Assembly: GCA_021159005.1 (NCBI GenBank)
Contig: JAGGSN010000206.1
Location: 26,260 to 90,259, forward strand
DNA length: 64,000 nt
Reading direction: 5' to 3'
DNA from: Candidatus Zixiibacteriota bacterium
Lineage (GTDB): Bacteria > Zixibacteria > MSB-5A5 > UBA10806 > 4484-95
Numbering within the stretch: position 1 is the first letter of the stretch; each line of letters opens with the position of its first letter. The notes below the pieces were generated by a model. That model was given only the letters and a program-made list of their open reading frames with translations. It had not been told where the DNA came from and searched no databases. Position numbers and translations under genes: made by a program. This document shows, piece by piece, positions 1,647-62,771 of this stretch.

Positions 1647-1728
1647 AATATCAGATTATAATGTTTTTATTAACTATTAAAGTCAAGACCTTAAACCCCT
1701 TAAATGATGGCCAAAGCACAAAAATAAG

Positions 1729-2799: not shown

Positions 2800-2803
2800 T
2801 ATG

Positions 2804-3907: not shown

Positions 3908-4662
3908 TTTTTCTCCCAGTTTTGATTCTCAAGAAGTTGTTCATCGGGAACCTCCCGGAACTTTTTAGCGGGAATTCCTGCGACTATTGTTTTTGCAGGC
4001 GCATTAGCGGCAACCAAAGCCCCGGCGGCTATCAGACAATCTGCGCCAAGCTCCTTACCAGGCAAAATCACTGCGCCTACGCCAATCCTGCCGCCCTTTT
4101 TTACAGTTACACCCTTAAAATGTTTGAATCTTTCTTCGGTTCTGCCAACAAAATTATCGTTTGAGGTGGCAACACAAGGAGCTATAAAAACTCTATCCTC
4201 TACTTTTGAATAAGCGGTAAGATAGACATTAGTTTCGAGCTTGCAATAACAGCCGACCTCGCAGAAATTTTCAACAGCGACACCTCTGCCAATAATTGTA
4301 AAATTGCCTATCGAAACATTTTCGCGCACTGATGATAAGTCGGCTACGAGAACTTTCTCGCCAATTTTACAGCCGCGGTAGATTACTACCGATGTGCCGA
4401 TAATGCAGTTATCGCCAATTGTAAGAGCCGGCAATTGCTGGTCTTTGGTAACCGCCGAATTGGCGGCTTTCATCGGGAGTTTGCCCAAAACAGTATTATC
4501 ATCAATACGGACATTTGAGCCAATTTGCGTATCGGGATGAATAATGACGCCATTACCGATTATGCATCCGGCATCAATAGACACATTTGCGCCTATTACA
4601 CAAAAATTTCCAAGTTTAATATCTTTAGCTATCCCTGCTGATTCAGCAATAACATTACTCAT
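3904..4662 (-). CDS. Hexapeptide-repeat N-acetyltransferase (WbpD-like)
   Basis: Left-handed beta-helix hexapeptide repeats; IGRGVAVEN, FIAPCVATSND and VAGIPAK. Confidence 0.85.
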   Translation of the reverse strand: MSNVIAESAGIAKDIKLGNFCVIGANVSIDAGCIIGNGVIIHPDTQIGSNVRIDDNTVLGKLPMKAANSAVTKDQQLPALTIGDNCIIGTSVVIYRGCKIGEKVLVADLSSVRENVSIGNFTIIGRGVAVENFCEVGCYCKLETNVYLTAYSKVEDRVFIAPCVATSNDNFVGRTEERFKHFKGVTVKKGGRIGVGAVILPGKELGADCLIAAGALVAANAPAKTIVAGIPAKKFREVPDEQLLENQNWEKK

Positions 4663-4673
4663 AAATTACCTAC

Positions 4674-6945: not shown

Positions 6946-6950
6946 AGGTT

Positions 6951-8678: not shown

Positions 8679-9076
8679 TCTGTTTCACCATCCAATTAAC
8701 TGTTTGTTATTATTATGGAAACAGTCAATTTAAGTTTGTTAATATACATTCAATGGCAATCAAGTCAAGATATTTTCCTGTTGGAATTTCCTCATTTTTT
8801 TTCATAACATTGCATATCGGGTTCTGAAAAATAAAATAGCGAAACTCCTTAAAGATTAAACTTGACATGATTATCAATTTATATTATTTTTATAAATAAA
8901 TCGGCCGCTATTTTAAATAATGGGCCTTTCCTCGATTTTAAATAGTTCGTTCTTTTGATAATGATGTTGTTTTTAATAAATAAAAACTGAAATGCTTAAG
9001 CTAATTTCTGTGATTTTTATTGCTGTTTTGTAATATCACATGAAAAAAATGCGCGCATTTTGAAAGGAGTATCATT

Positions 9077-37883: not shown

Positions 37884-38258
37884 ATGGGTTTCGGTTATGG
37901 CATAATCGCTTTATTTATCTTGGTTGGGATACTGTTTGTATTAGTTGTTGTTTTCTTTGCCAGTCTTTTACGTCCCAAGCGTCCCAATAAGAATAAATTA
38001 GAGAATTATGAGTGTGGCGAACGTCCAATTGATGGTGCATGGATTCAATACAATTCCGGTTTTTATATTTTTGCCTTAATATTCGTGATATTTGATGTTG
38101 AGGTAGTTTTTTTATTCCCCTGGGCGGTTGCCTTTAAACAACTCTCCCAGCCCAACCAACTTGGTCTTTTTATGTTGGTAGAGGCATTTATTTTCATATT
38201 TATTCTAATTGTTGGTCTAATCTACGCTTGGAAAAAAGGAGCCTTAAAATGGGTATAA
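37884..38258 (+). CDS. nuoA: Complex I subunit A
   Basis: [20 protein letters not shown] and [10 protein letters not shown]. Confidence 0.95.
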
Positions 38259-38776
38259 TTGAAAAGGTTCCAACATATCTCGAAAAAATACCAGGCGGAG
38301 GGATAGTAGTTGCTTCGGTTGAGTCGGTTCTCAATAATTCAAGGGCGCATTCTCAATGGTATTTGCTGTTTGGCTTGGCTTGCTGCGCTATTGAGATGAT
38401 GGCTACCGGCGCTTCCCGCTACGATTTTGACCGTCTGGGCATGATTTTTCGTGCCTCACCCCGCCAAGCTGATTTAATGATGGTTTGCGGTACTGTAACT
38501 CATAAAATGGGCAAGCGGGTTAAAATCCTTTATGATCAGATGTCCGACCCGAAATATGTTTTAGCTATGGGCGGATGCGCCAGCAATGGCGGCCCGTTTT
38601 ATTATGATTGCTACTCAGTGTTAAAAGGTGTAGATAAGGTAATACCTGTTGATGTTTACATTCCCGGCTGTCCTCCTCGCCCGGAAGCGCTTATGCAGGG
38701 CACATTGAAAATGAGAGAAGTTATCAAGAACCAGAAAATCAAAGATTTCCTCGGCGATAAACCGATGCAATCATAG
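38249..38776 (+). CDS. nuoB: Complex I subunit B
   Basis: [26 protein letters not shown] and [15 protein letters not shown]; start placed at ATG 38249. Confidence 0.95.
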
Positions 38777-38785
38777 CAATAATAA

Positions 38786-39271
38786 ATGACTAAAGAAGAG
38801 ATTGAAAAAAAAATAACGCTGGATTTCAAAGACCGCGTTGAAATTCAGGAGACCAACCAACCAGAGCCGTTTGTTTATATTTCCAAAGATAAATATATAG
38901 AATTCTGCCAATATCTTAAAAATGATACCGACTTGTCATTCGAGTTCCTTTTTCAGCTTGGCGGCTCTCATTTTGAGGATAGGTTCGAGGTCTTTCTCTG
39001 TCTTAGTTCTCATAAACATCGGCATGAAATTGTTGTGAAAGTAAAATTGCCGGCTGATAATCCGGAAATAAATTCAGTTATAAATATATGGCGGGTTGCT
39101 GATTTCTTTGAACTTGAGGTAATGGAACTGTTTGGCATCATGGTTGTAGATCATCCTAATCCCCGTCATCTGTTATTAATTGAGGAATGGGATTATGGTT
39201 ATCCGATGAGGAAAGGCTGGACAGGACCTGATTTTATTCCAATGCCTGATAAATCCAAGAGCGCAGAATGA
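38786..39271 (+). CDS. nuoC: Complex I subunit C
   Basis: WRVADFFELEVMELFGI...HPNPRHLLL...GYPMRK. Confidence 0.9.
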   Translation: MTKEEIEKKITLDFKDRVEIQETNQPEPFVYISKDKYIEFCQYLKNDTDLSFEFLFQLGGSHFEDRFEVFLCLSSHKHRHEIVVKVKLPADNPEINSVINIWRVADFFELEVMELFGIMVVDHPNPRHLLLIEEWDYGYPMRKGWTGPDFIPMPDKSKSAE

Positions 39272-40389
39272 GTGATCTAATTAAAGATATACAGCATAAT
39301 GAAGATGAATTTATAATCAATATGGGGCCACAGCACCCCTCCACTCATGGTGTGCTGCGTCTTATCCTTAAGATGAAGGGCGAATTCATTATGGATTTAA
39401 TTCCTGATGTTGGGTTTCTTCATCGTTCATTGGAAAAAATAGCTGAGAACCGCACTTATGCTCAGTTTATGCCGTTTACCGACCGAGTTGACTATTGCGC
39501 CTCCATACCCTGCAATTTTGCCTGGGCGGTTGCAGTGGAGAAGCTTGCTGAAATCGAGATACCCGACAGAGCGCAGTATTTGCGGGTTATTATGGCTGAG
39601 TTGAATCGAATTGCCTCGCATCTTGTTTGGCTTGGCACAATGTCGCTCGATTTAGGCGCGTTTACTCCGTTTCTGTATGCTTTCCGCGAACGGGAACAGA
39701 TTCTGGATATGTTCGAGATGACTTGCGGTCAGAGGCTTACATATAATTATATGAGAATCGGCGGAGTATCCAAGGATGTGCCGCCTAAATTTTATAAAAG
39801 ATGTAAAGACTTCACTGTAGATTTTCGCAAGAAAGTTGATGATTATGAGGCTCTTTTAACATATAACCCGATATTCTTAACCCGCACCAAAAATGTCGCT
39901 ATTTTACCTGTTGATGATGCTCTTAATTATGGTGCCAGCGGACCAACAATAAGGGCATCCGGACATGATTGGGACCTGCGAAAGACTCATCCATATTCAT
40001 CTTATGATAAATTTAATTTTGAAATCCCGACCGGAAAAACCGGCGATGTTTGGGATAGATATTTAGTTCGCATCCGCGAGATGCGTATATGCTGTGATAT
40101 TATCGATCAGGCATTAGAGGGATTGCCTGAAGGTCCGATAATGGCGAGAGTGCCGAAAATGTTTAAGCCCAAGCCAAACGAGGTATATTCGCGAATCGAA
40201 GCTCCGCGCGGCGAGATGGGCTATTATATTATCTCGGATGGCACAACAAAGCCATACCGGGTGAAAATCCGCACAGCCTCATTTGCCCATGTTCAGCTTA
40301 TGAATTATCTATGCAAGGGCTGGAAAATAGCCGACTTGGTGGCGATTTTCGGTTCGCTGGATATTGTTCTGCCGGAGGTTGACCGTTAA
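39268..40389 (+). CDS. nuoD: Complex I subunit D
   Basis: NMGPQHPSTHGVLR, GFLHRSLEK, DRVDY, ELNRIASHL, EAPRGE and DIVLPEVDR. Confidence 0.95.
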   Translation: MSDLIKDIQHNEDEFIINMGPQHPSTHGVLRLILKMKGEFIMDLIPDVGFLHRSLEKIAENRTYAQFMPFTDRVDYCASIPCNFAWAVAVEKLAEIEIPDRAQYLRVIMAELNRIASHLVWLGTMSLDLGAFTPFLYAFREREQILDMFEMTCGQRLTYNYMRIGGVSKDVPPKFYKRCKDFTVDFRKKVDDYEALLTYNPIFLTRTKNVAILPVDDALNYGASGPTIRASGHDWDLRKTHPYSSYDKFNFEIPTGKTGDVWDRYLVRIREMRICCDIIDQALEGLPEGPIMARVPKMFKPKPNEVYSRIEAPRGEMGYYIISDGTTKPYRVKIRTASFAHVQLMNYLCKGWKIADLVAIFGSLDIVLPEVDR

Positions 40390-41444
40390 TGCTGGAATTA
40401 ACTGGGATTCTGCAATGGGTTGTTAGTATTGTTGTCGGCATCTCCGAATCATTGGGCTTGCCGGCTATTGTATCTGATATAGTGTTGATGCTCCTAACTA
40501 TTGTTGCGATTGTTGTATTCTTATTGATAATGTGCTTATTCTTGGTCTGGTGGGAACGAAAAGTTTCGGCTCATATTCAGGATAGATTAGGACCAATGAT
40601 GGCTGGCTGGCATGGTTGGTATCAGACTATCGCGGATGCCCTTAAACTATTGCAAAAAGAAGATATAATCGTTAAATCGGCAGATAGAAAAGTGCATTTC
40701 TGGGCACCGGTAATAGTTTTCACTGTTTGTTTGGCGGCTTATGCTGTTATACCATTCGGCAAAGGATTAATCGCCTCTGATGTGAGCATCGGCTTATTAT
40801 ATATACTTGCTATTACAAGCTTTACTGTTATCGCCCTGCTGATGGCGGGCTGGGGCTCCAATAATAAATATGCTCTTCTTGGCGGTATGCGTTCTGCAGC
40901 GCAGATAGTTTCCTATGAGGTGCCGCTTACTCTTTCGGTGCTTGGCGTTGTCTTGATGTCGGGTTCGCTTTCGATGTATCATTTTGTTGAAGTTCAGACT
41001 GATTGTTTCTGGAACTGGTATATCTGGCCTCAGCTTCTCGGATTTTTCATATATATTAGCGCGGCTACGGCCGAATTGAACCGAACACCGTTCGACCTTC
41101 CCGAAGCTGAACAGGAATTAGTTGCCGGCTTTAATATCGAGTATTCGGGCATGAAGTTCGCCATGTTCTTCCTTGCCGAATTTTTGAATATGTTTACCGC
41201 TTCGGCGATTGCCACTACTTTATTTTTAGGAGGCTGGCAGCCGCCATTACCGGGACTGGATTTTATCCCGTCATATTTATGGTTTATAGGCAAATCATTG
41301 TTTTTAGTTTTTGTAATTATGTGGTTTAAGTGGACTTATCCTCGTTTAAGGGTTGACCATCTGATGGCATTCGCCTGGAAGATTCTATTGCCCTTAGCGT
41401 TTGTTAATATAATTCTTACAGCTTTGGGAGTTTATTTCTTTTAG
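40389..41444 (+). CDS. nuoH: Complex I subunit H
   Basis: ERKVSAHIQDRLGP, ADALKLL, AAQIVSYE, NRTPFDLPEAEQEL and YPRLRVD. Confidence 0.96.
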   Translation: MLELTGILQWVVSIVVGISESLGLPAIVSDIVLMLLTIVAIVVFLLIMCLFLVWWERKVSAHIQDRLGPMMAGWHGWYQTIADALKLLQKEDIIVKSADRKVHFWAPVIVFTVCLAAYAVIPFGKGLIASDVSIGLLYILAITSFTVIALLMAGWGSNNKYALLGGMRSAAQIVSYEVPLTLSVLGVVLMSGSLSMYHFVEVQTDCFWNWYIWPQLLGFFIYISAATAELNRTPFDLPEAEQELVAGFNIEYSGMKFAMFFLAEFLNMFTASAIATTLFLGGWQPPLPGLDFIPSYLWFIGKSLFLVFVIMWFKWTYPRLRVDHLMAFAWKILLPLAFVNIILTALGVYFF

Positions 41445-41446
41445 TT

Positions 41447-42037
41447 ATGGCATTTGTAGGAGAATTTTTCAGCGGAATATACAACCTGTATTTGGGGTTG
41501 AAAACCACCCTTAAATATCTGCCGGGACGAGCGATTACCATTCAGTATCCCAAAGAAAAGATGGAGATGTTCGAGCGTTTCCGGGGGATGCCGGTATTGC
41601 TGTCAAATCTTGAAACCGGCAAGCTTAACTGCAATGCCTGCTTGCTTTGCCAGAAAGCCTGCCCGGTTGGCGCGATTACGATAAAACAGGCTGAGGACAA
41701 AGATCCGGATACCGGCAAACGCTACCCTGTGCGTTTTGAGTTGAATACGCTAATATGCTGTTTCTGCGGATTATGCGAGGAAGCCTGCAATTTCGATGCG
41801 ATAAAGATGTCTGGCAAATATGAGTTTGCCACTACTAATAAGGAAGAATTGTTTTACGACATGAAAAAGCTTCAGGAAGTCGGTCGTGATGTGAAATACA
41901 CGCCTAAGAAAAAACGTCCGGCAAGAAAACCAGCTGATAAAACCGACAAGAAACCAGAAGCTAAATCCGAACCTACACCTGATGATGCTAAAGACACAAA
42001 ACCGGATAAACCTCAAAATCCGGAGGATAAGCAATGA
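41447..42037 (+). CDS. nuoI: Complex I subunit I (2x4Fe-4S) with charged C-terminal tail
   Basis: TIQYP, CNACLLCQKACP and CCFCGLCEEAC. Confidence 0.93.
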   Translation: MAFVGEFFSGIYNLYLGLKTTLKYLPGRAITIQYPKEKMEMFERFRGMPVLLSNLETGKLNCNACLLCQKACPVGAITIKQAEDKDPDTGKRYPVRFELNTLICCFCGLCEEACNFDAIKMSGKYEFATTNKEELFYDMKKLQEVGRDVKYTPKKKRPARKPADKTDKKPEAKSEPTPDDAKDTKPDKPQNPEDKQ

Positions 42038-42534
42038 ACCTCGCAATCTTTTATGTTTTAGCAATTATGGCCGGCGTTTCCGCACTTATGGTTGTAACAT
42101 TGAAAAATATATTTCATTCGGCCTTGTTTTTAGTGTTGACCCTTTTTTCGGTGGCTGGGATATATGTGCTTTTGGGCGCCGAGTTCTTAGCCGGTGTTCA
42201 GGTTTTGATATATGTGGGCGCGATTACAATATTAATGATATTTGCTATTATGCTGACTTATCAGATTAACAATAAAAGCATAAAACAGGTAAATGAGCAG
42301 GTTGTACCGGCAAGTCTGATTGTTTTGATATTTTTTGGGATGTCCTTATTTACATTATTCAAAACAGGCTGGTCGGTCGGCGATGGAAGTTTGCCTGAAC
42401 GTAATACATTCGAGCTTGGCAGGCAGTTGCTATCAACATATGTGGTCCCTTTTGAGGTTGTTTCGATAGTCCTTCTCGTGGCGCTAATCGGGGCGATAAT
42501 TATCGCCCGTCAGGATAAACAGAAGGAGAATTGA
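42034..42534 (+). CDS. nuoJ: Complex I subunit J
   Basis: NIFHSAL, AEFLAGVQVLIYVGAITIL and PFEVVSIVLLVALIGAI. Confidence 0.95.
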   Translation: MNLAIFYVLAIMAGVSALMVVTLKNIFHSALFLVLTLFSVAGIYVLLGAEFLAGVQVLIYVGAITILMIFAIMLTYQINNKSIKQVNEQVVPASLIVLIFFGMSLFTLFKTGWSVGDGSLPERNTFELGRQLLSTYVVPFEVVSIVLLVALIGAIIIARQDKQKEN

Positions 42535-42536
42535 TA

Positions 42537-42848
42537 ATGGAACCGACCTTGACTCATTTCTTAGTATTGGGCGCAGTTCTCTTCGCATTGGGGATATTTG
42601 GAATTCTTACTCGCCGCAATGCTATTGGTATATTGATGGCGATTGAATTATTGTTCAATGCCGCAGGAATCAATTTTGTGGCATTTACAAAGTTTATAGC
42701 CCCGGAGGGTATCGCGGGGCATGTGTTTACTGTTTTTATTATTACTATCGCTGCCGCTGAGGCCGCTGTTGGCTTGGCGATTGTGATGTTAGTTTATCGT
42801 AATTTTAAAGGCATTGAAGTAGACAAAATTAATTTCATGAAATGGTAG
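42537..42848 (+). CDS. nuoK: Complex I subunit K
   Basis: RRNAI, IELLFNA and AAAEAAVGLAI; ATG 42537 lies 8 nt after AAGGAG. Confidence 0.95.
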   Translation: MEPTLTHFLVLGAVLFALGIFGILTRRNAIGILMAIELLFNAAGINFVAFTKFIAPEGIAGHVFTVFIITIAAAEAAVGLAIVMLVYRNFKGIEVDKINFMKW

Positions 42849-42855
42849 GCTGAAA

Positions 42856-45054
42856 ATGACAGAATACAGTTGGCTGATACCGTTATTCCCCCTATTCGGG
42901 TTCATAATGATTATATTTTTCCTGAATCGCAACAATAAGCTATCAAGTTATTTCAGCATCGCTATGGTTTTGATATCATTTATCCTATCGGTAAAAGTAT
43001 TATTTGAGGTTTTAGCTCATCCTACCCCTTATATGATGTTTGTCGACTGGCTTGTCTGGAGCGATTTTATTCTGCCAATGGGCATATATATCGACCCGTT
43101 AGCGGCGGTGATGCTGATTGTCGTAACTGTTGTATCATCGCTGGTTCATATATACTCAGTCGGCTATATGCACGGCGACCCGCGGTTTGCCAGATTCTTT
43201 GCTTATCTTGGGTTGTTCACATTCTCGATGCTTGGCTTGGTAATTGCCGGTTCGTATGTCTTAGTGTTAGTTTTCTGGGAATTAGTGGGCCTTACATCTT
43301 ATTTATTGATTGGCTTCTATTTCGAGAAAGATTCAGCCGCCAATGCTGGCAAGAAAGCATTTATTACAACTAAATTAGCCGATCTTGGCTTCACTGTTGG
43401 TTTAGTGCTTATGATATTCGCAATTGGCACCGCTACATTGCCTGAAGTGAATCAGAAAATAGAAAGCCTCAAAGTTGCCGCCGGAATTGTTGATGAAAGC
43501 TCCGGCCATCACGGTTCGAGTGAAGCGGCTCATAATAGCGGAGTTGTTAATGCCGCCGAAGTTGAGCATTATGGCGAGGAAAATACTAACAATGAACCTG
43601 AAAATATAGTTAGAGACACTCTCGTTCCGGGTTTTGAAAAAGCTGACCATGGCCATCATGGTTCTGAGACCGTAGAGCATGAGATTGAAGATACTCCTCA
43701 TACCGCTGCAACTATCGATGAATCGATGACCAAGGAAGAAGCCAACCATACTCTTTGGTTAATCGGCATCGCCGGATTGCTGATGTTTATGGGCGCTTGC
43801 GGCAAATCGGCGCAATTCCCGTTCCATGTCTGGCTTCCGGATGCTATGGAGGGTCCGACACCTGTTTCCGCATTGATTCATGCCGCTACAATGGTCGCCG
43901 CCGGTGTGTATTTAACCGCGCGATTAATGGGGATAATACTGGCATTTGAAACTATGGCTATGGTAGTGGCGACAATAGGCGCAATCACGGCTTTTATGGC
44001 GGCTTCTATCGGCTTAGTTCAAAACGACATCAAACGCGTGCTGGCGTTCTCGACAGTTTCTCAGCTTGGCTACATGATGATGGCGCTTGGTCTTGGCGGT
44101 TATGCTGCCGGCACTTTCCATCTTTTCACTCATGCCTTTTTCAAATCCTTGCTGTTTTTAGCTGCCGGTTCGGTCATTCATGCCGTGCATACTAATAGTA
44201 TTCAGGAAATGGGCGGTCTTCATAGCAAAATGAAGATTACATCGATAACGTTTTTAATCGCTTCTTTGTCGATTTCAGGAATTTTCCCGCTATCGGGTTT
44301 CTGGTCTAAAGATGAAATATTCGCAGTGGCTTTCGAAGGCGGCCATTATATTTTCTTGGCCGTAGGTTTAGCGGCGGCTTTCATGACAGCCTTTTATATG
44401 TTCCGTCTCTATTTTATGACCTTTACCGGCAAGCCGCGAGACCAGCATGCTTATGACCATGCTCACGAATCGCCATACAGCATGACTGTGCCGCTGATGA
44501 TATTGGCTTTCTTAGCGGTATTTGCCGGCTGGTGGGGTATTCCCTGGCTAAATGCAAATTACGCCAGCTTCGTGTTTTTTGGCCATCCCCATCATGCGGT
44601 TCCGAATCTGCTTCTTATGGGATTCTCGTTAGTTTTAGCTCTTTCCGGTATATGGCTTGCGTATATGATGTATTACAAGAAATCCATTTCTTATGAGGCA
44701 ATGGGCGCAAGATTCAAAACGATTTATATATTATTATACAATAAATATTATTTCGATGAGCTTTACATGGCAACCATCATTAATCCCGTCTATTACATTA
44801 TGGAGAAAGTATTCAGATTCGATGTGTTGGTTATTGATGGCGCTGTAAATGGCGTAGGCAAATTAACGCTCTTATGGTCACGGGCTAAAGAGCGTTTTGA
44901 TACATATGTAATAGATGGCGCCGTCAATGGAGCAGGTTATTTATCGCTGGCTATGGGCAGGATTATCAGAAAAACCCAGACCGGTCAGCTTCAAACTTAT
45001 GCTCTGGTGATATTTTTGGGCGCAATAATATTGATTTTCATGAAATATGTTTGA
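42856..45054 (+). CDS. nuoL: Complex I subunit L with ~90-aa His/acidic-rich insertion
   Basis: YSVGYMHGD, WELVGLTSYLLIGF, GKSAQFPFHVWLPDAMEGPTPVSALIHAATMV, DIKRVLAFST and THAFFK. Confidence 0.96.
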   Translation: MTEYSWLIPLFPLFGFIMIIFFLNRNNKLSSYFSIAMVLISFILSVKVLFEVLAHPTPYMMFVDWLVWSDFILPMGIYIDPLAAVMLIVVTVVSSLVHIYSVGYMHGDPRFARFFAYLGLFTFSMLGLVIAGSYVLVLVFWELVGLTSYLLIGFYFEKDSAANAGKKAFITTKLADLGFTVGLVLMIFAIGTATLPEVNQKIESLKVAAGIVDESSGHHGSSEAAHNSGVVNAAEVEHYGEENTNNEPENIVRDTLVPGFEKADHGHHGSETVEHEIEDTPHTAATIDESMTKEEANHTLWLIGIAGLLMFMGACGKSAQFPFHVWLPDAMEGPTPVSALIHAATMVAAGVYLTARLMGIILAFETMAMVVATIGAITAFMAASIGLVQNDIKRVLAFSTVSQLGYMMMALGLGGYAAGTFHLFTHAFFKSLLFLAAGSVIHAVHTNSIQEMGGLHSKMKITSITFLIASLSISGIFPLSGFWSKDEIFAVAFEGGHYIFLAVGLAAAFMTAFYMFRLYFMTFTGKPRDQHAYDHAHESPYSMTVPLMILAFLAVFAGWWGIPWLNANYASFVFFGHPHHAVPNLLLMGFSLVLALSGIWLAYMMYYKKSISYEAMGARFKTIYILLYNKYYFDELYMATIINPVYYIMEKVFRFDVLVIDGAVNGVGKLTLLWSRAKERFDTYVIDGAVNGAGYLSLAMGRIIRKTQTGQLQTYALVIFLGAIILIFMKYV

Positions 45055-45069
45055 TAGAGGAGGAATCAA

Positions 45070-46542
45070 GTGGATTTTCCAATACTTACTTTTTTAACCT
45101 TTTTCCCGCTTTTGGGCATGATAGCAGTAATGCTTTTGCCAAAAAACAGCGACCGTTCAGTCAAATGGACTGCCGTATTCTTTTCGTTTGTTCCTTTGGT
45201 TGCCTCCGTTTTTCTTGTAGCAAATTATGATTACACGGTTTCGACAATACAATTCATTGAAAGATACACTTGGTTTCCTCAGGTCAACATTAATTATTTT
45301 ATGGGTGCTGATGGTTTATCTGTGCCGATGCTGTTTCTAACAGCTTTACTATCATTTATATCGATAATAGTCTCGTTCGGCATCAAAGAGCGAGTGAAAG
45401 AGTATTTCGCCTGGTTTTTACTTTTAGAGGTTGGCATGATGGGCGTGTTTTGCGCGCTCGACTTTTTCCTTTTCTATTTATTCTGGGAAATCATGTTGGT
45501 GCCGATGTACTTTCTTATCGGTGTTTGGGGTGGTCCAAGACGAGAATATGCGGCTATTAAGTTCTTTTTATATACGTTATTTGGGTCGGTTTTCATGCTG
45601 ATTGGTATTCTGGCGTTGTATTTCACAACCGGCACGCTTGATATGATGGAATTAATAGCCAACAACTACCTGTATACACGCACTTTCCAGCTCTGGATTT
45701 TTGCCGCCTTCTTTATCGGTTTTGCAATTAAGGTTCCTGTCTGGCCGTTCCATACATGGCTTCCGGATGCTCACGTTGAGGCGCCAACCGCTGTTTCGGT
45801 GATTCTGGCTGGTATCCTTCTGAAAATGGGAACATACGGCATTCTGCGCATCAGCTATCCAATGTTTCCCGAGGCAACGGTTTATTTTGCGAAATGGATT
45901 GCGGTTTTGGGCATGATAGGCATTATATATGGCGCTTTAGTATCGATGGCACAGAAAGATTTGAAGAAGCTGGTGGCATATTCGTCGGTTTCGCACATGG
46001 GGTTTTGCTTACTGGGCATGGCCGCCATCAATACGGTGGGAATATCCGGCTGCTTATTTCAGATGTTTTCGCATGGCGTAATTACAGGCGCCCTATTTAT
46101 TTTAGTGGGCGTAATTTATGATAGAGCCCATACTCGTGAGATTGCCGCTTTCGGAGGGCTTGGCGCAAAGCTTCCGGTTTACACAGGCATATTCGTTTTG
46201 TTTGGCATGGCAGCGCTTGGCTTGCCAAGCATGTCCGGGTTTGTTTCCGAGTTTATGATATTTGTTGGTTCGTTTACCTCGGTATATGTTCCCACTTGGA
46301 TGGTTATAGTATCCGTGCTCGGCGTTATTTTGGGCGCTGCATATATTTTAAGGATGATTCAACATGTATTCCTGGGCAAGTTCAATACTCGCTGGGATGG
46401 TTTAACAGAGATCAACGGCCGCGAAATTTTCACTATAGTTCCGCTGGCAATATTAACTATTCTGATTGGCGTATATCCCACAAGCTTGAATATGTTTTTA
46501 AAGGCTACAGTGGAAAATCTGGTTAAGCTGATTATAGGTTAA
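45070..46542 (+). CDS. nuoM: Complex I subunit M
   Basis: FWEIMLVPMY, AIKVPVWPFHTWLPDAHVEAP, LLKMG and LVAYSSVSHMG. Confidence 0.96.
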   Translation: MDFPILTFLTFFPLLGMIAVMLLPKNSDRSVKWTAVFFSFVPLVASVFLVANYDYTVSTIQFIERYTWFPQVNINYFMGADGLSVPMLFLTALLSFISIIVSFGIKERVKEYFAWFLLLEVGMMGVFCALDFFLFYLFWEIMLVPMYFLIGVWGGPRREYAAIKFFLYTLFGSVFMLIGILALYFTTGTLDMMELIANNYLYTRTFQLWIFAAFFIGFAIKVPVWPFHTWLPDAHVEAPTAVSVILAGILLKMGTYGILRISYPMFPEATVYFAKWIAVLGMIGIIYGALVSMAQKDLKKLVAYSSVSHMGFCLLGMAAINTVGISGCLFQMFSHGVITGALFILVGVIYDRAHTREIAAFGGLGAKLPVYTGIFVLFGMAALGLPSMSGFVSEFMIFVGSFTSVYVPTWMVIVSVLGVILGAAYILRMIQHVFLGKFNTRWDGLTEINGREIFTIVPLAILTILIGVYPTSLNMFLKATVENLVKLIIG

Positions 46543-46548
46543 TAAGCT

Positions 46549-47151
46549 ATGTCGAGCCAGCAGAGGAAGAGAACCATTTTGGTTATCACTCATCTTTATC
46601 CGCGGTTTGAAGGCTGCACGATGGCTCCTTTTCTGGGAATATGGGCGGAAAATTTGGCTAAACAATATAATATGATAATACTGGTACCCCGTCACGAAAA
46701 GGCTTTGCCTGAAAGAAACGGTGTTAAGTTGGTATATTTTGGATATTTTTTTAAATCGTTAGAGAAATTTTCATATACATCAAGTCTTTTTGCCAAAGTA
46801 CGGAAATTTAATATATTGTATCAATTATTAGCAATATTTTATTTTATTAGCTACACCTACAAATGCCTGATTATCGCCAGAGACATGAAACCCGATATTA
46901 TTCATAGCCACTGGTTTGTCCCGGCTGGCTTAGTTGGCCATATAACATCCGTATTTACTGGCATACCCCATGTTGTTTCAGTATACAGCGATGGTTTTTT
47001 AATTAAAACAAATCCGATTTTACGTTTGGTTGCCCGGATAATTTTTAATCGGGCTAAATCGGTTATAGCCATATCGAAGTCAATCAAAGAATATGTTGAT
47101 TTAATTTATCCCGACGCCGAGGTTGTTTACCCATGCAATCGACTGTTTTAA
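46549..47151 (+). CDS. GT4-family glycosyltransferase, N-terminal (acceptor) domain only
   Basis: ILVITHLYP, MKPDIIHSHWFVPAG, GIPHVVSVY and VIAISKSIKE; stops right after EVVYP. Confidence 0.75.
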   Translation: MSSQQRKRTILVITHLYPRFEGCTMAPFLGIWAENLAKQYNMIILVPRHEKALPERNGVKLVYFGYFFKSLEKFSYTSSLFAKVRKFNILYQLLAIFYFISYTYKCLIIARDMKPDIIHSHWFVPAGLVGHITSVFTGIPHVVSVYSDGFLIKTNPILRLVARIIFNRAKSVIAISKSIKEYVDLIYPDAEVVYPCNRLF

Positions 47152-47690
47152 CCGTAGGGCGGTTAGTGCCGCGCAAAGGACAGATTTATCTTATAGATGC
47201 GATGCGTAAGCTAGTTGATGAGGGCATGGATTTGAAGCTGGTTATTATCGGTATTGGCCCCGAGGAAAACCGGCTGAGAGAAAGAGCCAAGGGCTTGGAT
47301 TTTCGCTTGGAACTTATTATAAGCGATGAACAGCTTGAACAAGAATATAAGAACGCCGATGTTTTCGTTCTGCCCTCGATTACAGATGAACAAGGCGAAA
47401 AAGAAGGCTTGGGGCTGGTGCTGTTAGAGTCGATGCATTTTAAACTGCCTGTAATAGCTTTCGATAATGGCGGCGTAAGCGAGGTTGTTATTGATGGCTA
47501 TAATGGCATTCTTCTTCAGGAAAAAGATGTCGATGGTTTAGCTGTCTCAATTAAGAAAGTTTTAACTGATAAAGAGTTCAGTGATAAACTTGTTGAAACG
47601 GCATATAAGGATGCGCATAAACGTTTTTCAGTCGAGACGATTGTTAATCAGCAGGCTGAAATATATGATAGAGTATTAGAGCACAGATAG
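47133..47690 (+). CDS. GT4-family glycosyltransferase, C-terminal (donor-binding) domain only
   Basis: VLTVGRLVPRKG, ADVFVLPS, EGLGLVLLE (EX7E) and PVIAFDNGGVSEVV; own ATG overlapping the upstream ORF by 19 nt. Confidence 0.85.
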   Translation: MQSTVLTVGRLVPRKGQIYLIDAMRKLVDEGMDLKLVIIGIGPEENRLRERAKGLDFRLELIISDEQLEQEYKNADVFVLPSITDEQGEKEGLGLVLLESMHFKLPVIAFDNGGVSEVVIDGYNGILLQEKDVDGLAVSIKKVLTDKEFSDKLVETAYKDAHKRFSVETIVNQQAEIYDRVLEHR

Positions 47691-47721
47691 ATTGCAATTG
47701 TAATAAAGGCAGGATGTTAAA

Positions 47722-49158
47722 ATGGACTTTGCAGATATTAATTTCAGACTGATAGCGCCGGAAGTATTTTTATTTTTATGGTCGTTATTGATTCTATTTC
47801 TCGGTATAAAAAAGCAGGATAAAAGCCCTCGAACATTGGGGATATTATCTATTATTGGATTGTTAGCAGCCTTAGCTCTTTCAATGAATACTTCAAGCGG
47901 CACTTTCTTCGGACAAACATTTATTGTCGATGATTATGCGCGAGCATTCAAGCTTATTTTTATCCTGTCAGCCGCGCTTACTATAATGGGTTCGATTGAT
48001 TACATCGCTAAAAGGCTGATTCACCAGGGCGAGTTTTTCTCCCTTCTATTATTATGCACAACTGGTATGATGTTTTTATCATCTGCAGGCGAGCTGATTT
48101 CAATGTATGTTGCCTTAGAACTGTCGACAATTTCTCTATATATTCTGGCGGCATACAGGAAGAAAGACTTAAAATCAACCGAAGCAGGCCTTAAATATCT
48201 GATTTTGGGAGCTGTCTCTTCCGGAATTTTACTATACGGACTTTCGCTTATCTATGGCTTGACCGGAACGACTGTCATGAGCGAAATCGGCAAACGTCTG
48301 TTCCTTGGCCCGGATACAAATCTGGCGACCTATTTTGCTATAATAATGTTTATGGCTGGCTTTGGGTTCAAGCTTGCCGCCGCGCCTTTCCATATGTGGG
48401 CACCGGATGTTTACGAGGGTGCGCCGACACCGGTTACTGCTTTCCTGTCGGTAGCATCAAAAGCCGCCGGTTTAACCGCTTTTGTAAGATTATTCTTCGA
48501 GTCGCTGTTAATTGCCAAATCCGAATGGGTGATTATCCTCGAGGTTGTAGCGATACTGGCAATGGTGATTGGTAATGTTGTTGCCCTTTTGCAGAAAAAT
48601 ATCAAGCGAATGCTGGCTTATTCATCAATTGCTCAGGTGGGGTATGTTTTAGTTGCTTTAGCGGCTGGAATTGATTTATCGGTTGGTTCCATGATGATAT
48701 TCTTAATTGCTTACCTGTTCGCTAATATTGGCGCTTTTATTATCGTGATTGCCTTTTCAAATGATACCGGTTCCGACCAGATTAAGGATTATTGCGGCCT
48801 TATGAAACGTTCGCCAGTTGCCGCAATTATTATGTCAATATTTATGCTCTCGCTGTCTGGTATACCACCAACAGCCGGTTTTTTCGCAAAGTACTGGCTT
48901 TTTGCCGCCGCCGTTAAAGAAGGCTTGTATTGGCTGGTTGTCATAGCTGTTATAACATCCGTAATATCGCTGTTTTATTATATGAATGTCGTTAGAGTAA
49001 TGATGTTTCATCAACCTGAAGAAAATACGGCCATTTCTCTTTCGGGTATGGTTAAGGTTAGCCTTGGCATAAGCGTTATAGTTGTTTTGATAATGTGCAT
49101 TATACCCGGCGTATTTTATAATTGGGCATTGAGTGCATCTACAATATTCAGATTTTAA
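47722..49158 (+). CDS. nuoN: Complex I subunit N
   Basis: ALELSTISLY, EAGLKYLILG, FKLAAAPFHMWAPDVYEGAP, NIKRMLAYSSIAQ and GIPPTAGFFAK. Confidence 0.96.
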   Translation: MDFADINFRLIAPEVFLFLWSLLILFLGIKKQDKSPRTLGILSIIGLLAALALSMNTSSGTFFGQTFIVDDYARAFKLIFILSAALTIMGSIDYIAKRLIHQGEFFSLLLLCTTGMMFLSSAGELISMYVALELSTISLYILAAYRKKDLKSTEAGLKYLILGAVSSGILLYGLSLIYGLTGTTVMSEIGKRLFLGPDTNLATYFAIIMFMAGFGFKLAAAPFHMWAPDVYEGAPTPVTAFLSVASKAAGLTAFVRLFFESLLIAKSEWVIILEVVAILAMVIGNVVALLQKNIKRMLAYSSIAQVGYVLVALAAGIDLSVGSMMIFLIAYLFANIGAFIIVIAFSNDTGSDQIKDYCGLMKRSPVAAIIMSIFMLSLSGIPPTAGFFAKYWLFAAAVKEGLYWLVVIAVITSVISLFYYMNVVRVMMFHQPEENTAISLSGMVKVSLGISVIVVLIMCIIPGVFYNWALSASTIFRF

Positions 49159-49504: not shown

Positions 49505-51511
49505 ATGATAATGAAAAAATATGCCGGCCTTATACCCGGACTAATAGCGCTGATAGTATATTATACAACTACCTGCCGTTCTATCTGGATTGGCGATTCG
49601 GGGGAATTTTCACTGGCTTTGAAAACTCTCGGTATTTGTCATCCTCCCGGCTATCCATTGTTTACGATACTTGGCAAATCATTCTTAATATTCACATCAT
49701 TTTTACGTCCAATGTATGCCGCCAATCTGTTTAATACGCTGATTGCAGCGGCGGTTGCAACAACAATATACTACCTTTTTAGACGTTATCTAAATCAATG
49801 GCCAGCGATGATATTGAGCCTGATATGGGCATTTACTCCGCTGTTTTGGTCTGAAACTGCCGGGGTTGAGATTTATACTTTCAATATGCTGTTAATTGCT
49901 TTAATCTTTCTGGCAATTGAAAGCAATCATAAAAGAAGATGGCTTATAATAGTCTATTTATTCGGTTTGGCAATGACTAATCATCCCTCCGCTTTGGCGA
50001 TTTTACCGGTATTAATCTACCTTTTTATAAAAGAAAAAATATATAAGCGATGGAATATATACCCTTATTTAATTTGCATACTCATTATTACCGGCAGTAT
50101 CTATTTGTACTTGCTGGTTCGCTCATCATGCGATCCGCTTTCCAACTGGGGAAATCCGAGTAATATTAAAGCGTTGATTCATCATATGACCTTAAGCCAA
50201 TACAGCGGCTGGTTGGGATACTCATGGGATAATATTTTAATTAGTATAAAGCTGTTTTTCATTTCGATTATTAAATCATGGTGGTGGATCGGGCTGGTAA
50301 TGTCGGTAATCGGAACAATTATCGGCCTAATAAAAAGCAGAACTCAAACCATCGGTGTCTTGTTAATGCTGGCGGCGCTATTGTTTTTATCGTCATCACT
50401 TCTGGAGGTCAATTATGAGCCGTATAATATTCCTGCATTATTTGCTGCTTTGCTGTTGATGAGCAATGTTTTCGTCTGGCTTGAAAGCTTTTCTTTGTCG
50501 TCGCTTGTGCGGTATAGCATATACTCAGCATGTTCAATTGCTTGTTTGATACTGCTTGTTATTAATTACAATACGCAGAACAAATCTGATTATACTCTTT
50601 ATGAGGATTACTCCAAATATATTCTCGATAGCGCCGAAAGCGGTATCTTGTTTACAGCCGGCGATATTAATTCTTTTGGTACGCTTTACTTGCGTTATGT
50701 TGAGGGCTATAGGAAGCAGGTAAAGGTATATGATCGTTCTATAAGGCTCAGCGCTCTTTTAAATGATGCTTCGCAGTTAACCGGCATTAAGTATACTGAT
50801 TATTACAATGCCAGGTTAGCCATAATAAATAACGCCGCTGAAAACAAGTATCTGGTTAAAAACCATTATGCTTATGAACCAGAGTGGCTGAATATTTCCG
50901 AACCATTTTATTCTTATGGGATTTTATATTCCATAAACAACAAGCAGGCTAATTCTCCAAATATTTCAAAATATCCGATTGATTATAAACCGGGGGATGT
51001 TTTATCGCGCCAATTGCTTGTTAATCTCGATCTTGCCCGAGGTGAGAAATGTTTAACCGAAGAACCATACGACACGACTGCCGCTTTTGCCGCCTTTAAC
51101 CTGGCTCTTAACCGCCTGGAAAATGAACCGAGGGCAGTGGTTTTAAACAACCTCGGCATTTATTTCCGAAGCGGCGGTTATCTGGAATTGGCTCATAGAA
51201 CATATATAAAAGCGCTTGAGAAACCGATAATTACAGCTTCCACACGGCAGGATATAACTTTTAATATCTCAAATCTCTATAAGGATAGAGGCAATAACCA
51301 TCTTGCTTCGAAAGACTATCATAACGCTATTGGCAGCTATATAAGGGCATTGAATTATGACCCTGATAATACTGACTTGATGCTTAACATCGGTCTGATT
51401 TTTAGTCAAATACTAAATGATACTGCTAATGCCTGTATCTATCTGGAAAAGTATCTTGATATAAAACCATCTGATACAAAAGTTCGCAACTTCTTAGATA
51501 AAATAAAATAA
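49505..51511 (+). CDS. DUF2723 / TMEM260-like GT-C membrane glycosyltransferase with C-terminal TPRs
   Basis: GDSGEF...LGICHPPGYPLF, AGVEIY, GLAMTNHP and SNWGNP, about 10 TM segments, then TPRs (ALNYDPDN). Confidence 0.8.
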   Translation: MIMKKYAGLIPGLIALIVYYTTTCRSIWIGDSGEFSLALKTLGICHPPGYPLFTILGKSFLIFTSFLRPMYAANLFNTLIAAAVATTIYYLFRRYLNQWPAMILSLIWAFTPLFWSETAGVEIYTFNMLLIALIFLAIESNHKRRWLIIVYLFGLAMTNHPSALAILPVLIYLFIKEKIYKRWNIYPYLICILIITGSIYLYLLVRSSCDPLSNWGNPSNIKALIHHMTLSQYSGWLGYSWDNILISIKLFFISIIKSWWWIGLVMSVIGTIIGLIKSRTQTIGVLLMLAALLFLSSSLLEVNYEPYNIPALFAALLLMSNVFVWLESFSLSSLVRYSIYSACSIACLILLVINYNTQNKSDYTLYEDYSKYILDSAESGILFTAGDINSFGTLYLRYVEGYRKQVKVYDRSIRLSALLNDASQLTGIKYTDYYNARLAIINNAAENKYLVKNHYAYEPEWLNISEPFYSYGILYSINNKQANSPNISKYPIDYKPGDVLSRQLLVNLDLARGEKCLTEEPYDTTAAFAAFNLALNRLENEPRAVVLNNLGIYFRSGGYLELAHRTYIKALEKPIITASTRQDITFNISNLYKDRGNNHLASKDYHNAIGSYIRALNYDPDNTDLMLNIGLIFSQILNDTANACIYLEKYLDIKPSDTKVRNFLDKIK

Positions 51512-51649: not shown

Positions 51650-54600
51650 CTATTTTAGTAATACGAGTTTTTTAATGCTTACATTTTGGATTTCATTATT
51701 TGATTTAAGCTTGGCGAAATAAATTCCCGAGGCTGTATTCTTGCCAGCGTCGTTAATTCCGTTCCAGCTTATATAATGATAACCAGCCTTGAGCTGACCG
51801 GAAGCAAGTTCCTTAACTAATCGACCGCTGATATCGTAGATATTTAAAGTAACATTATCGGCAACAGGAAGCGCAAACTCAATTGTGGTTGTCGGATTAA
51901 ATGGATTAGGATAACAACATACAATACTGAATTGTTCCGGCAGCGGAACTTCGCGTTTAAGCAAAGTATTAATCAGACAGCCATTACCATCAGAAAATGA
52001 CATAAGAGATGGCGTAAGCTTAACGCCCTTAGGCAGCATCATTCTCATAAGTTCGGTGGTTCCGGATTGTATTACTTTGCTTTCGAGATCATAAACGCAT
52101 AAGCGCATTGACTCATCGTATTGCTTAAGTTCAACTTCCATATCAAGGTCGTTGTTTAATTGTAGATTGCAATCAATGTCTTCCGAAATCGGCAATTCGA
52201 GGAGCAAACCGCCAATATTAAATTCGGAGTTGAATTTAATAATGGTCTCGTCATTTTCATTTTGCTCGATAATAAGTTCAACTGGCCTGGTTTCAACCGG
52301 TACTAATTTCGGGTTGCTGTTACTGCCATTTACCACATTAATCATAAAAATTAAGTCAGCTACTGTTGCCCTATAGCCGTCTTGGTTAACATCGGATGCC
52401 CACATCTGGTTTTCGGTAAATGGATAACCGATAGGATCGATAAGGTGGTTTGCCATAGTCATAGCATCACCTAATTCGAATGGGTAGCGATTCATATTTA
52501 TATCGCCGATAATAGGATTACAATCGTCCAATACTCGTACCGAACCGCAATAGAGATTTAGCAGGAATGTTCCAAACTGGCTGCTGTCGGGAGCATCACT
52601 GCAGCCATCGCCATACCAGACATGATACCCTGTTGAATCGGCAACAGCATTATCATTGATACTTTCTTCATGAAAGAAACAAATCGGTATGCTGATGTCA
52701 TCCGGGTATTCCTGCGGAACCAGCAAGAATTGCAAGTTTAATATTGGTTCATTGGGATCGATATCGCACAACGGTCCATGATAAACCTGATCGTTTAGAT
52801 CAGCTATATAACTAAACTTGATAGTACCAGGGCCAAAAATATCATACGTAAAGTGATTATACTCATTGCCAAAATCGAGATTTTCAGTAATCAATGCGTT
52901 TTGCAATACTAACACTGATGGATCCCAGTGAATCACCATCGTTAAGCCGCCGATACACACGCAATCATACGTATTAAGATAAATACCGACAGTTCCTGAT
53001 AGACCCGGCGCAATCATCACATCTTCATCTATGTAGTAATCAATATAGCCAAGAATAGTAAGATTGTAGCCGATGTTATCATCGCAAATTCCATCACAGG
53101 CGGTTATAACTACATCGAATTCCATATGCTCGCCGCAGGCAGAATCAGGTACCGTGAAACAGTAAACGCCAAGCCAATATCCCGGTTCATCCACTAATGT
53201 TGTGATTTCTCCATAGTTAGCGGTAACGACAATATAGTCGCCGTCGACATCTATAGCCTCCAGAGTATCGCAGAAGTTTTCGTATATACACATTACGGTA
53301 AGCGAGTCATTTAAGAATTCGGGACAATTTTCGATTTCAATATCTATCAGAGTAGTGCAGACGCTAACTTCACCGCAGTCATCAATGGCCGTAAGAATGA
53401 TTGTATTTATTCCGGTATCAGGTAAGAAGCAGACCATCTCTTCATTCGGATAGAATATACCAATGTTGGAAAACGCTGTATCAAGGTTATCTTCATAATC
53501 GTGTACATAGAATTCTGACAGACAAACAGTATCAATACTGCCCAATCTTATCTGATCATCCGGAGGACAATTTACCAGCGGAGGAGTATTGAGATTTATT
53601 GTTACGTCTGTTGTGCAAACAGCCGCAAGTCCGCAATCATCGATAACAGTAAGTATAAGGGTATTTAATCCCTCAACTGGAGTAAAGCATACCGTACTGC
53701 CGACGATAGTGCCTGTATTGACATTAACGTTATTGATGTTGTTATCAACATCGTTATAGTTGAAACCTGAAATACATAGCTCGCTCAAGTCGCATACCGC
53801 TATGGTTGTATCATCAACGCAGGTTACCTCGGGAGCGCTATTTACAGTTACAGTGATATTCACAGTTGTCGAACGCGATTTATTTGCGGCACAAACAGCT
53901 CCGCATTCATCCTCGCATTCGAATACAGCGGAATAAACACCCGAACCTGAAGTTGTAAAAGTCCAATTTGAACCGTCAAAATTACCATCGCCGCCCGGAA
54001 GCATTGAACAGCCAACGAGATTATCATCCTCATCGGCTGCCGAAACAGGGAAGCTGAATGTGGAATCGAAGCAGATGAAGTAGCTATTATCATCCGGCAT
54101 GCTGCATTCAGGCGGGCTGTTGTAATCGACAGTAATTTCGAGCGTATCTATGCAGGTCTCTCCGCAAGCATCCTCACATTCGAATATTCCCGTATAAACA
54201 CCTTCGCTGTCAGTTGTGAAAGTCCAGGTTGAGCCGTCAAAACTACCCGGACCGGATGTCTTAGAACAGCCAACGAGGTTATTATCAATATCGGTTGCCG
54301 AGATAGCAAAACCGAATGTAGTGTCATCACAAACAAAGAATGATTGGTTATCAGGGATATCGCATACTGGAGGAGTATTGTAGTTAATTATTATAGTAAT
54401 GCTATCGGCGCAGGTTTCGCCGCATTCATCCTCGCATTCAAATATCGCCGAGAAAGCCCCCTGACCGGTTGTATTGAATGTCCAACTGGAACCGTCAAAA
54501 TTACCATCGCCCAGAACTTTAATGCAGCCGCTCAGGTTATCGTCATCATCGACGGCTGTAATCGGGATGCTGAATGTTGTATCATCGCAGACAAGATAGG

Positions 54601-62257: not shown

Positions 62258-62771
62258 AGCCGCTCTCCAACTCCATTTATTGTAATATTTTTTTATCTTA
62301 GTATTTGAAAAATGACTTTTAAGTCTCCAGTTTATATGCTTAAATTTCAACTAAACGGTAATTATTGAACCCCTAATTTTAAAATATTTAACATTTTCAT
62401 TATAATTTGTAATAATCGAGCTGATATTCATGATTTTATATAATAGACTATACAATGATAATAAAGCGACTATATATCTGTATAATGATGGTAAAAATAT
62501 TGAAAACTTTCCTGCAATCGACAGAATAATTTTATTGACATAACACAAACAAATACAAAACACTAAATATAAATTCCCTAAACCTTAAAGGTTCGGTTAA
62601 AAATTTATTATTTTAATTTTCTTTGCCTTGGGGAATGCCAATGCTTTGCTTTGACATACCTGATTCCAGAAGAACCCCAAGAAGTTACAACAATTTTACT
62701 AAGCCAATACCAATATAAACAACGCAAATATACATGTCAAGTAATATTTTTGTTTGACGATAGAAAAAAAT

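Follow-up and report, generated by a model that had tools for sequence, protein, structure and literature searches.

A glycosyltransferase of family 4 (GT4; GT-B fold) that is encoded in two separate half-genes lies between nuoM and nuoN, within the operon for respiratory complex I, on a stretch of 64,000 nucleotides (nt) from an uncultured member of the Zixibacteria (contig JAGGSN010000206.1, assembly GCA_021159005.1; hereafter “the window”, to whose positions the coordinates of its features refer, on the plus strand unless stated otherwise). The first half-gene encodes the N-terminal domain of the enzyme (N-half); the second encodes the C-terminal domain (C-half) and overlaps the first by 19 nt in another reading frame (Table 1). 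The pair is probably the product of a gene fission that has become fixed in one lineage of Zixibacteria; the two proteins would act as a heterodimer in a sugar pathway of the cell envelope, and the nuo operon would carry their genes as passengers.

The arrangement recurs in many relatives. Locus contexts, which were drawn from metagenome-assembled genomes (MAGs) at NCBI and from JGI, ENA and Logan assemblies, show the order nuoM, N-half, C-half, nuoN in about 17 distinct loci from independent assemblies, with protein identities of 51-90%, and wherever both halves are present they overlap by precisely 19 nt. Such recurrence excludes a chance arrangement. Searches with the N-half returned 23 proteins of 51-100% identity, every full-length one of which comprises 195-201 amino acids (aa). 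Searches with the C-half returned about 38 clusters of 156-200 aa (52-86% identity; 184-200 aa when near full length), and the next matches reach at most 43%. The two proteins of the window itself are each recorded on four contigs. Among the species representatives of GTDB, the clade comprises only seven species, all of them Zixibacteria (some labelled “uncultured Ignavibacteria”), and identity among these representatives falls sharply from 54% to 40% or less outside the clade. Both halves are under purifying selection: the ratios of nonsynonymous to synonymous substitution rates (dN/dS, Nei-Gojobori), obtained from pairs with unsaturated synonymous sites (loci L008-L013, L012-L013, L006-L015 and window-L003), are 0.033-0.092 for the N-half and 0.053-0.093 for the C-half, comparable to those of nuoM and nuoN.

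The pair is tightly packed into the operon, with gaps of 6 nt between nuoM and the N-half and of 31 nt between the C-half and nuoN, and a simple scan found no terminator-like site in either of these short intergenic gaps. According to the best reading, the pair and the nuo genes would form one transcription unit and be co-transcribed. A preliminary description of the locus, made from the DNA letters alone, had given the same coordinates, gaps and out-of-frame overlap, all of which are confirmed by calls of open reading frames (ORFs). It had also reported the lack of a terminator between nuoM and nuoN, intact GRL..RKG and EX7E motifs in the C-half, and a “headless” complex I; the scan of the gaps agrees with the first point, the motifs proved to be invariant among homologues, and ORFs and Pfam matches bear out an operon without nuoEFG.

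Domain searches and structure models assign both halves to GT4. The N-half matches Glyco_transf_4 (Pfam PF13439, E = 1.3e-11) and PF13579 (2.5e-9), and the C-half matches Glycos_transf_1 (PF00534, 1.3e-39). In 28 homologues of the C-half, the catalytic signature GRLVPRKG (with R10 and K15) and the EX7E motif (E91...E99, EGLGLVLLE) are invariant; in total, the alignments have 40 invariant columns in the N-half and 42 in the C-half, including R10, K15, E91 and E99. AlphaFold2 (AF2) models were made of each half separately. The N-half model (predicted local distance difference test score, pLDDT, 83.6; predicted template modelling score, pTM, 0.84) forms a complete seven-strand Rossmann domain, the last strand of which (residues 191-194, VVYP) lies close to the end of the 200-residue chain, and its top Foldseek matches are the N-domains of the GT4 enzymes BshA, MshA, HepE, PimB' and PimA (TMq 0.54-0.64). 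In the C-half model (pLDDT 89.0, pTM 0.84), the first strand comprises residues 3-8. Sequence matches of the C-half in the PDB are TarM, PimB', PimA and BshA (E = 6e-16 to 3e-11), and the alignment runs to the extreme C-terminus of BshA, PimA and TarM.

Judged from the models, the cut lies exactly in the inter-domain linker. The stretch between the last strand of the N-half and the GRL motif is about 12-14 residues shorter than in fused homologues, and a one-base repair would therefore not yield a normal single-chain enzyme. These results match the preliminary description, which had placed the break at the domain boundary and had doubted that a simple frameshift repair would restore the enzyme; its statement that the linker is essentially absent is roughly right. 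In GT-B enzymes, the last helix of the C-domain crosses back onto the N-domain. The last helix of the C-half (residues 167-183) is modelled with lower confidence, which would fit a missing partner. Moreover, the halves differ in charge, and this asymmetry is kept across pairs, with net charges of +7 to +22 in the N-half and -1 to -13 in the C-half. A basic N-domain is typical of membrane GT-B enzymes with lipid acceptors, e.g., PimA and MurG; the N-half has no segment of transmembrane grade (maximum Kyte-Doolittle mean over 19 residues, 1.49). Matches to named GT4 equivalogs in NCBIfam all remain far below the cut-offs, for the halves as well as for the fused homologues (94 bits vs. 274-800), so that no substrate can be transferred from named GT4 enzymes. 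By these assignments the halves are GT4 by descent in a non-canonical quaternary form, i.e., two ORFs instead of one linked polypeptide. GT-B catalysis normally needs both lobes, and the two proteins most likely act together as a non-covalent heterodimeric GT-B enzyme. A co-expressed heterodimer had already been proposed in the preliminary description, and the proposal appears well supported by the conserved split at the domain boundary, the purifying selection and the lack of a terminator.

Two separate polypeptides are most likely made from the overlapping genes, not a FRAMESHIFTED one. The C-half has its own start codon, which is ATG except in two separate lineages (L004/L005 and L011/L095) where GTG takes its place, and the first base of this codon, which is the fourfold-degenerate third position of the overlapping N-half Pro or Ser codon, is never C or T. 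About 10 nt upstream of the start, most loci have a Shine-Dalgarno (SD)-like GAGG, AAGG or AGGG, which resembles the AAGGNAGG conserved upstream of nuoN. In one locus (L007, described below), a free-standing C-half begins at the homologous Met after a 71-nt spacer. A slippery heptamer of the type X XXY YYZ is not conserved in the overlap, the sole T-run of which is missing in L011 and L096, and the junction has no stimulatory RNA structure (minimum free energy -29.1 vs. a shuffle mean of -31.05, z = +0.59). The conserved start with its SD-like motif, together with the missing slippery site and the missing fold, argues for separate translation. Dual coding explains the invariance of the 19 nt, since both the C-terminus of the N-half (...VVYPCNRLF) and the N-terminus of the C-half (MQSxVL..., in the window MQSTVLTVGR) are conserved. 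The N-half terminates 16 nt downstream of the C-half start codon, which is a classic geometry for translational coupling, and the translation of the two halves might well be coupled in this way.

Two explanations would reduce the split to something more ordinary. It is extremely improbable that the two frames reflect an assembly or sequencing indel, or a recently broken pseudogene. In one contig, a single-base indel would look exactly like this, and a near-identical JGI contig (L110) does have a chimeric, patchwork end of N-half and nuoM pieces; L110 is affected only in its first 540 nt, however, and the contig of the window is untouched. The indel, which the preliminary description had itself named as a finding that would refute it, is ruled out, as far as comparisons can do so, by the identical frame structure in the 17 or so loci, which differ in sample, assembler and source: the search for nuoM-GT-nuoN synteny and a shared split point that had been proposed there showed both to be conserved, and the recurring 19-nt overlap in many independent assemblies contradicts an error. 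A pseudogene is ruled out by dN/dS values of 0.03-0.09, far below 1 in both halves, and by the catalytic motifs, all of which are intact. Somewhat less far-fetched, but still very improbable, is programmed -1 ribosomal frameshifting within the overlap, which would give a single fused GT4. The invariant length and relative frame (-1) of the overlap and its highly conserved sequence are what such a mechanism would predict, but dual coding by itself accounts for this conservation. No heptamer, no consistently present T-run and no stable downstream RNA structure were found that could promote slippage, the C-half start is maintained as ATG or GTG and is used by the solitary C-half of L007 at the same Met, and a fused product would have to function with a linker that lacks about 12-14 of the residues present in fused homologues.

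Two sequences from the JGI data deserve mention as rejected candidates. L110 (JGI 3300016457, a contig of 6873 nt) is 99.9% identical to positions 40542-46881 of the window; its end is a patchwork of short nuoM and N-half pieces joined at overlaps of about 7 nt, which gave rise to the chimeric database proteins P0017 and P0023 and looks like an assembly artefact. In the relative L099 (Ga0124853_1364191), not only the N-half and the C-half but also nuoN have broken frames; error-prone sequence is the simplest explanation, and L099 was therefore not counted as a case of gene decay.

The closest single-chain relatives of both halves are GT4 proteins of 393-405 aa from Fibrobacter, Fibrobacterota and Poseidoniaceae archaea. 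A profile search with the N-half gave 1137 representatives at E ≤ 1e-10, overwhelmingly of about 390-415 aa, and the whole Zixibacterial split clade collapses into one 199-aa representative among them. Short matches of about 184-236 aa among the top 150 representatives were considered as a second split lineage of the subfamily; with their ragged or aberrant C-termini they look like truncations at contig ends or by frameshifts (not proven). In sister Zixibacteria without the pair (NuoN 57-62% identical, including RBG_16_53_22), nuoM and nuoN overlap by 4 nt, and the downstream synteny DUF502 - PTS_EIIA/CBS - Na_Ca_ex - CNNM is common to these sisters and the GT-bearing loci. NuoM is 81-85% identical between the window and its GT-bearing relatives; NuoN identity is 68-92% in GT-bearing relatives and at most 63% in GT-less sister lineages. 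All GT-bearing loci are monophyletic in a tree of NuoM and NuoN (100%). Since the sisters have a contiguous nuoM-nuoN and the GT-bearing loci form a single clade, a gene of this subfamily has evidently been inserted once between nuoM and nuoN, already split or split soon after. Contiguous nuoM-nuoN genes in relatives, together with a fused GT elsewhere, had been named in the preliminary description as the mark of a recent insertion and decay; the insertion is indeed lineage-specific, but low dN/dS (0.03-0.09) and invariant motifs speak against decay. A mobile-element footprint was not detected, the flanks having no direct or inverted repeats beyond short chance matches, and the composition of the pair shows no striking break (GC content 37-42% vs. 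a window mean of 41.7%).

Since its insertion, the pair seems to have had a history of its own. Between loci L089 and L092, NuoL, NuoM and NuoN are 88-94% identical, the two GT halves only 55-56% (protein); at the nucleotide level, identity is 80-92% in nuoL, nuoM and nuoN and 55-65% exactly from the nuoM stop to the nuoN start. The GT tree pairs L089 with L090 (95%), whereas the flank tree pairs it with L092 and L003 (100%). This suggests that the GT cassette was swapped between lineages by recombination in the conserved flanks. In addition, the rate of evolution of the GT halves exceeds that of NuoM and NuoN about 2-3 times.

In one nested lineage the pair has left the nuo operon altogether. 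Locus L011 (positions 103-10069; Zixibacteria MAG GMC4.metabat2.266, JAOZPT010000008.1), and L095 from the same population (99.8%), contain the split pair with its 19-nt overlap outside nuo, in a cluster with the order TPR, GT4, flippase-like PF03706/TIGR00374, GT2 (glycosyltransferase family 2), the pair, GT2, WecA-like PF00953, AccA, PTS-EIIA and MreC. A tree of the pair places L011 within the subclade of the window (100%), with the nuo-embedded L001 as its sister (100%); the move out of nuo is therefore derived. Fused homologues likewise adjoin a flippase-like PF03706 gene in Fibrobacter and in Poseidoniaceae, the latter also with a GT2 gene, and a local hidden Markov model (HMM) recognized a PF03706-like neighbour in 12 of 17 loci with fused subfamily members vs. 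none of 63 control GT4 loci. Next to the fused homologues of other phyla, nuo genes were absent from all loci examined. Because of the relocation in L011, the PF03706 neighbours, the incongruence between cassette and flanks, and the faster evolution of the GT halves, the evidence favours a role in a sugar pathway of the membrane or envelope over one in complex I; as support for this role, the PF03706 association is suggestive, not strong.

Some observations weigh against this interpretation. Although the GT proteins have drifted apart to about 50% identity, the pair has stayed between nuoM and nuoN across the clade, and a functional link to complex I could be the reason. No more than about three independent lineages underlie the PF03706 association, as the 11 archaeal loci are one group and helped train the HMM, and no PF03706 gene was found near any nuo-embedded copy in the DNA examined. 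The synonymous sites of the GT genes are near saturation, and the case for recombination rests mainly on topological conflict. Finally, L007 (JGI 3300017613, a 13-kb contig, positions 7929-8558) has nuoM, the 71-nt spacer, the C-half and nuoN, but no adjacent N-half. Its C-half retains all 42 invariant residues. L007 is nested in the GT-bearing clade (NuoM and NuoN tree, 86%), which indicates that the N-half was lost or moved secondarily; a metagenome scan with only two peptide patterns returned no N-half from this sample.

L007 is also the starting point for the idea that the C-half is the functional unit, the N-half being dispensable or exchangeable, so that the C-half pairs with various N-domain proteins or has a non-catalytic role. 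The loss of the N-half next to a C-half with its full set of invariant residues is in line with this idea, but L007 is a single 13-kb contig, the genome of which could carry the N-half elsewhere. Every other locus keeps the N-half, with dN/dS of 0.03-0.09 and 40 invariant columns, and a lone C-half would be at odds with the general need of GT-B enzymes for both lobes; the idea thus appears quite improbable. A better candidate, although still an unlikely one, is a heterodimer that is dedicated to complex I: situated at the NuoL/M/N membrane arm, it would glycosylate a subunit, a bound lipid or the quinone pool, as needed for assembly, stability or regulation. Such a role would explain why the pair is found strictly between nuoM and nuoN in about 17 loci despite GT divergence to about 50%, why only 6 and 31 nt, without a terminator, separate it from the flanking genes, and why the C-half of L007 has stayed where it was although the N-half is gone; the basic N-half would suit a membrane surface, and sister lineages have another lineage-specific insert in nuo, an ORF of 240 aa between nuoK and nuoL for an apparently polytopic membrane protein. 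A more specific form, to which we assign a slightly lower probability, has the N-half docking at the cytoplasmic face of NuoM/NuoN and recruiting the C-half, to glycosylate a lipid, a quinone-related molecule or a subunit needed by a complex without NuoEFG; the L007 state and the other nuo inserts would then be variants of such accessory equipment. If true, a ferredoxin-type complex I from an uncultured phylum would prove to have an accessory activity that was not known before. However, the pair and the nuo genes do not occur together obligately: in L011/L095 an intact pair from a nested lineage has left nuo and landed in a glycan cluster, and the same complex I operon lacks the pair in sister Zixibacteria. 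The fused homologues of other phyla never neighbour nuo genes, and the pair evolves 2-3 times faster than NuoM and NuoN with a conflicting phylogeny, unlike a co-adapted subunit. On these four grounds, the suggestion of the preliminary description that the enzyme serves complex I is not supported and is probably wrong, and the envelope pathway is preferred.

The preferred explanation of a fixed fission with an envelope function can be put into the following sequence of events. The ancestor would have been a single-chain GT4 of about 400 aa from a distinct subfamily, with N-terminal THxYPR...APF and GEKEGLG-type EX7E motifs, which was cut in the inter-domain linker and entered the nuo operon of one lineage of Zixibacteria as a pair, by a single insertion between nuoM and nuoN, where it came to be co-transcribed with the genes of an 11-subunit complex I. 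The two halves would be translated separately from one nuo mRNA, the C-half initiating at its own ATG or GTG behind the internal SD-like GAGG, and translational coupling could provide them in roughly 1:1 amounts. The basic N-half (+13 in the window) would contribute the acceptor site and, probably, a membrane-binding face, and the acidic C-half (-10) would bind the nucleotide sugar and carry the catalytic motifs; as a non-covalent heterodimer, the halves would re-form the normal two-lobed active site of GT-B enzymes. Their job would most likely be to transfer a sugar onto a membrane lipid or lipid-linked glycan, in an envelope pathway with a flippase-like PF03706 protein and GT2 enzymes. The nuo location would supply expression and conserved flanks for recombination, not the substrate.

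Apart from one ancient case, Alg13/14-EpsE/F, GT-B enzymes that naturally consist of two chains are, to our knowledge, essentially unrecorded. Transfer is retaining in GT4 enzymes and inverting in the MurG/Alg13-14 group. In Alg14/Alg13 and the bacterial and archaeal EpsE/EpsF, a MurG-like GT-B enzyme is split at the domain boundary into adjacent genes, the first for a subunit on the acceptor and membrane side (N-domain), the second for a subunit on the nucleotide-sugar side (C-domain); the acceptors are lipid-linked, and the split has been inherited through a clade (PMC8993221; PMC10937113). In the Zixibacterial GT4, too, the cut lies between the domains and the N-half gene precedes that for the C-half, so that the pair would work like these enzymes; it is not a member of their family, however, as its halves match PF13439/PF13579 and PF00534, and neither Alg14 (PF08660) nor Glyco_tran_28_C (PF04101) was found in a Pfam scan (E ≤ 0.01). 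Unlike in the Alg and Eps pairs, the genes overlap by 19 nt inside a respiratory operon, and the fission is independent, much younger and confined to one lineage. No transmembrane anchor is predicted in the N-half, but it is very basic (+13), and the C-half is acidic (-10). Separately expressed N and C domains of GT-B enzymes were shown to assemble into stable, catalytically active dimers (PMC10937113), which makes a Zixibacterial heterodimer biochemically plausible. These auto-assembling “mix and match” two-chain enzymes are laboratory constructs from other GT-B enzymes (PMC10937113), whereas the Zixibacterial split is natural and evolutionarily fixed.

With the fused GT4 subfamily of Fibrobacter, Fibrobacterota and Poseidoniaceae, the pair shares the motifs THxYPR..APF, E(K/R)LxY, HxHW(F/W)xPxG and GEKEGLG/EX7E, the N parts being 24-32% and the C parts 36-40% identical, and the relocated pair also shares the adjoining flippase-like PF03706 gene. 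The fused subfamily differs in forming one polypeptide, with a linker about 12-14 residues longer, and in never being adjacent to nuo. BshA, MshA, PimA, PimB' and TarM have the same R/K plus EX7E catalytic signature as the C-half, but all are single chains. The recombination pattern has a counterpart as well: in O-antigen and capsule loci, divergent glycosyltransferase cassettes lie between well-conserved flanks. As in these surface-glycan loci, identity drops sharply at the borders of the Zixibacterial cassette and the GT tree conflicts with the flanks; unlike there, the cassette consists of two half-genes only, its flanks are respiratory, and recombination is deduced. Literature searches, the coverage of which is incomplete, turned up no paper on a natural split GT4 or on a glycosyltransferase encoded in a nuo operon, and the label “undescribed” that the pair had received in the preliminary description holds as far as these searches reach.

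The nuo operon of the window and its surroundings have further features. Within the operon, nuoD (39268-40389) directly abuts nuoH (40389-41444), and nuoEFG are not part of it. The product of nuoL (42856-45054, 732 aa) has a His/Glu/Asp-rich low-complexity insertion at about codons 205-300 (…SSGHHGSSEAAH…ADHGHHGSETVEHEIEDTPH…); NuoL of relatives measures 643-723 aa, and nowhere do the nuoL genes of close relatives diverge more than in this segment. In the GT-less sisters L107 (567-1289) and L109 (589-1308), the lineage-specific insert between nuoK and nuoL, of about 240 aa, has no Pfam match, and its several long hydrophobic stretches suggest a polytopic membrane protein; extra genes seem to be tolerated in, or recruited to, the nuo operons of Zixibacteria. 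Directly after nuoN, the window encodes a 668-aa TMEM260/PMT_2-like (GT-C type) putative protein O-mannosyltransferase with C-terminal TPR repeats (49505-51511, plus strand), a position that is occupied in most relatives by DUF502 - PTS_EIIA/CBS - Na_Ca_ex. On the minus strand follows an ORF of 3566 aa (51650-62350), in which Cys-rich modules of about 100 aa are repeated many times and long stretches are duplicated almost identically. A polysaccharide biosynthesis and export cluster on the minus strand (351-8678) comprises a Wzx-like flippase, a UDP-GlcNAc 2-epimerase, a DegT aminotransferase, a hexapeptide acyltransferase, a GFO/IDH oxidoreductase, Wzz/GNVR and Poly_export/SLBB; neither a PF03706 gene nor a GT4 of the split subfamily belongs to it.

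Table 1. Split glycosyltransferase genes and their setting in the window.
Feature	Position	Strand	Remarks
nuo operon without nuoE/F/G, 11 genes	37884..49158	+	Order nuoA, B, C, D, H, I, J, K, L, M, [GT pair], N; ORFs and Pfam
nuoM, 490 aa	45070..46542	+	Upstream flank of the insertion; Pfam Proton_antipo_M, 5e-80
GT4 N-half, 200 aa	46549..47151	+	Acceptor-side Rossmann domain, net charge +13; Pfam PF13439/PF13579
SD-like GAGG	47119..47122	+	Within the N-half gene, 10 nt before the start codon of the C-half; putative role
Dual-coding overlap, 19 nt	47133..47151	+	From the C-half start ATG through the N-half stop TAA; C-half in -1 frame
GT4 C-half, 185 aa	47133..47690	+	Nucleotide-sugar-binding catalytic domain, net charge -10; Pfam PF00534; GRL..RKG, EX7E
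nuoN, 478 aa	47722..49158	+	Downstream flank of the insertion; Pfam Proton_antipo_M, 1.4e-80

As far as the sequences tell, the Zixibacterial pair is a second natural fission of a GT-B enzyme, independent and evolutionarily recent, and it took place in GT4. With fused homologues available for comparison, the pair offers a natural experiment on how the lobes of GT-B enzymes assemble and how far they need a linker, and it may serve as a scaffold for the modular “mix and match” engineering of glycosyltransferases. The invariant 19-nt overlap would be an example of translational coupling that was frozen by the constraint of coding in two frames. For the annotation of genomes, the locus is a caution, since membership in an operon here probably reflects hitch-hiking on expression, not function.

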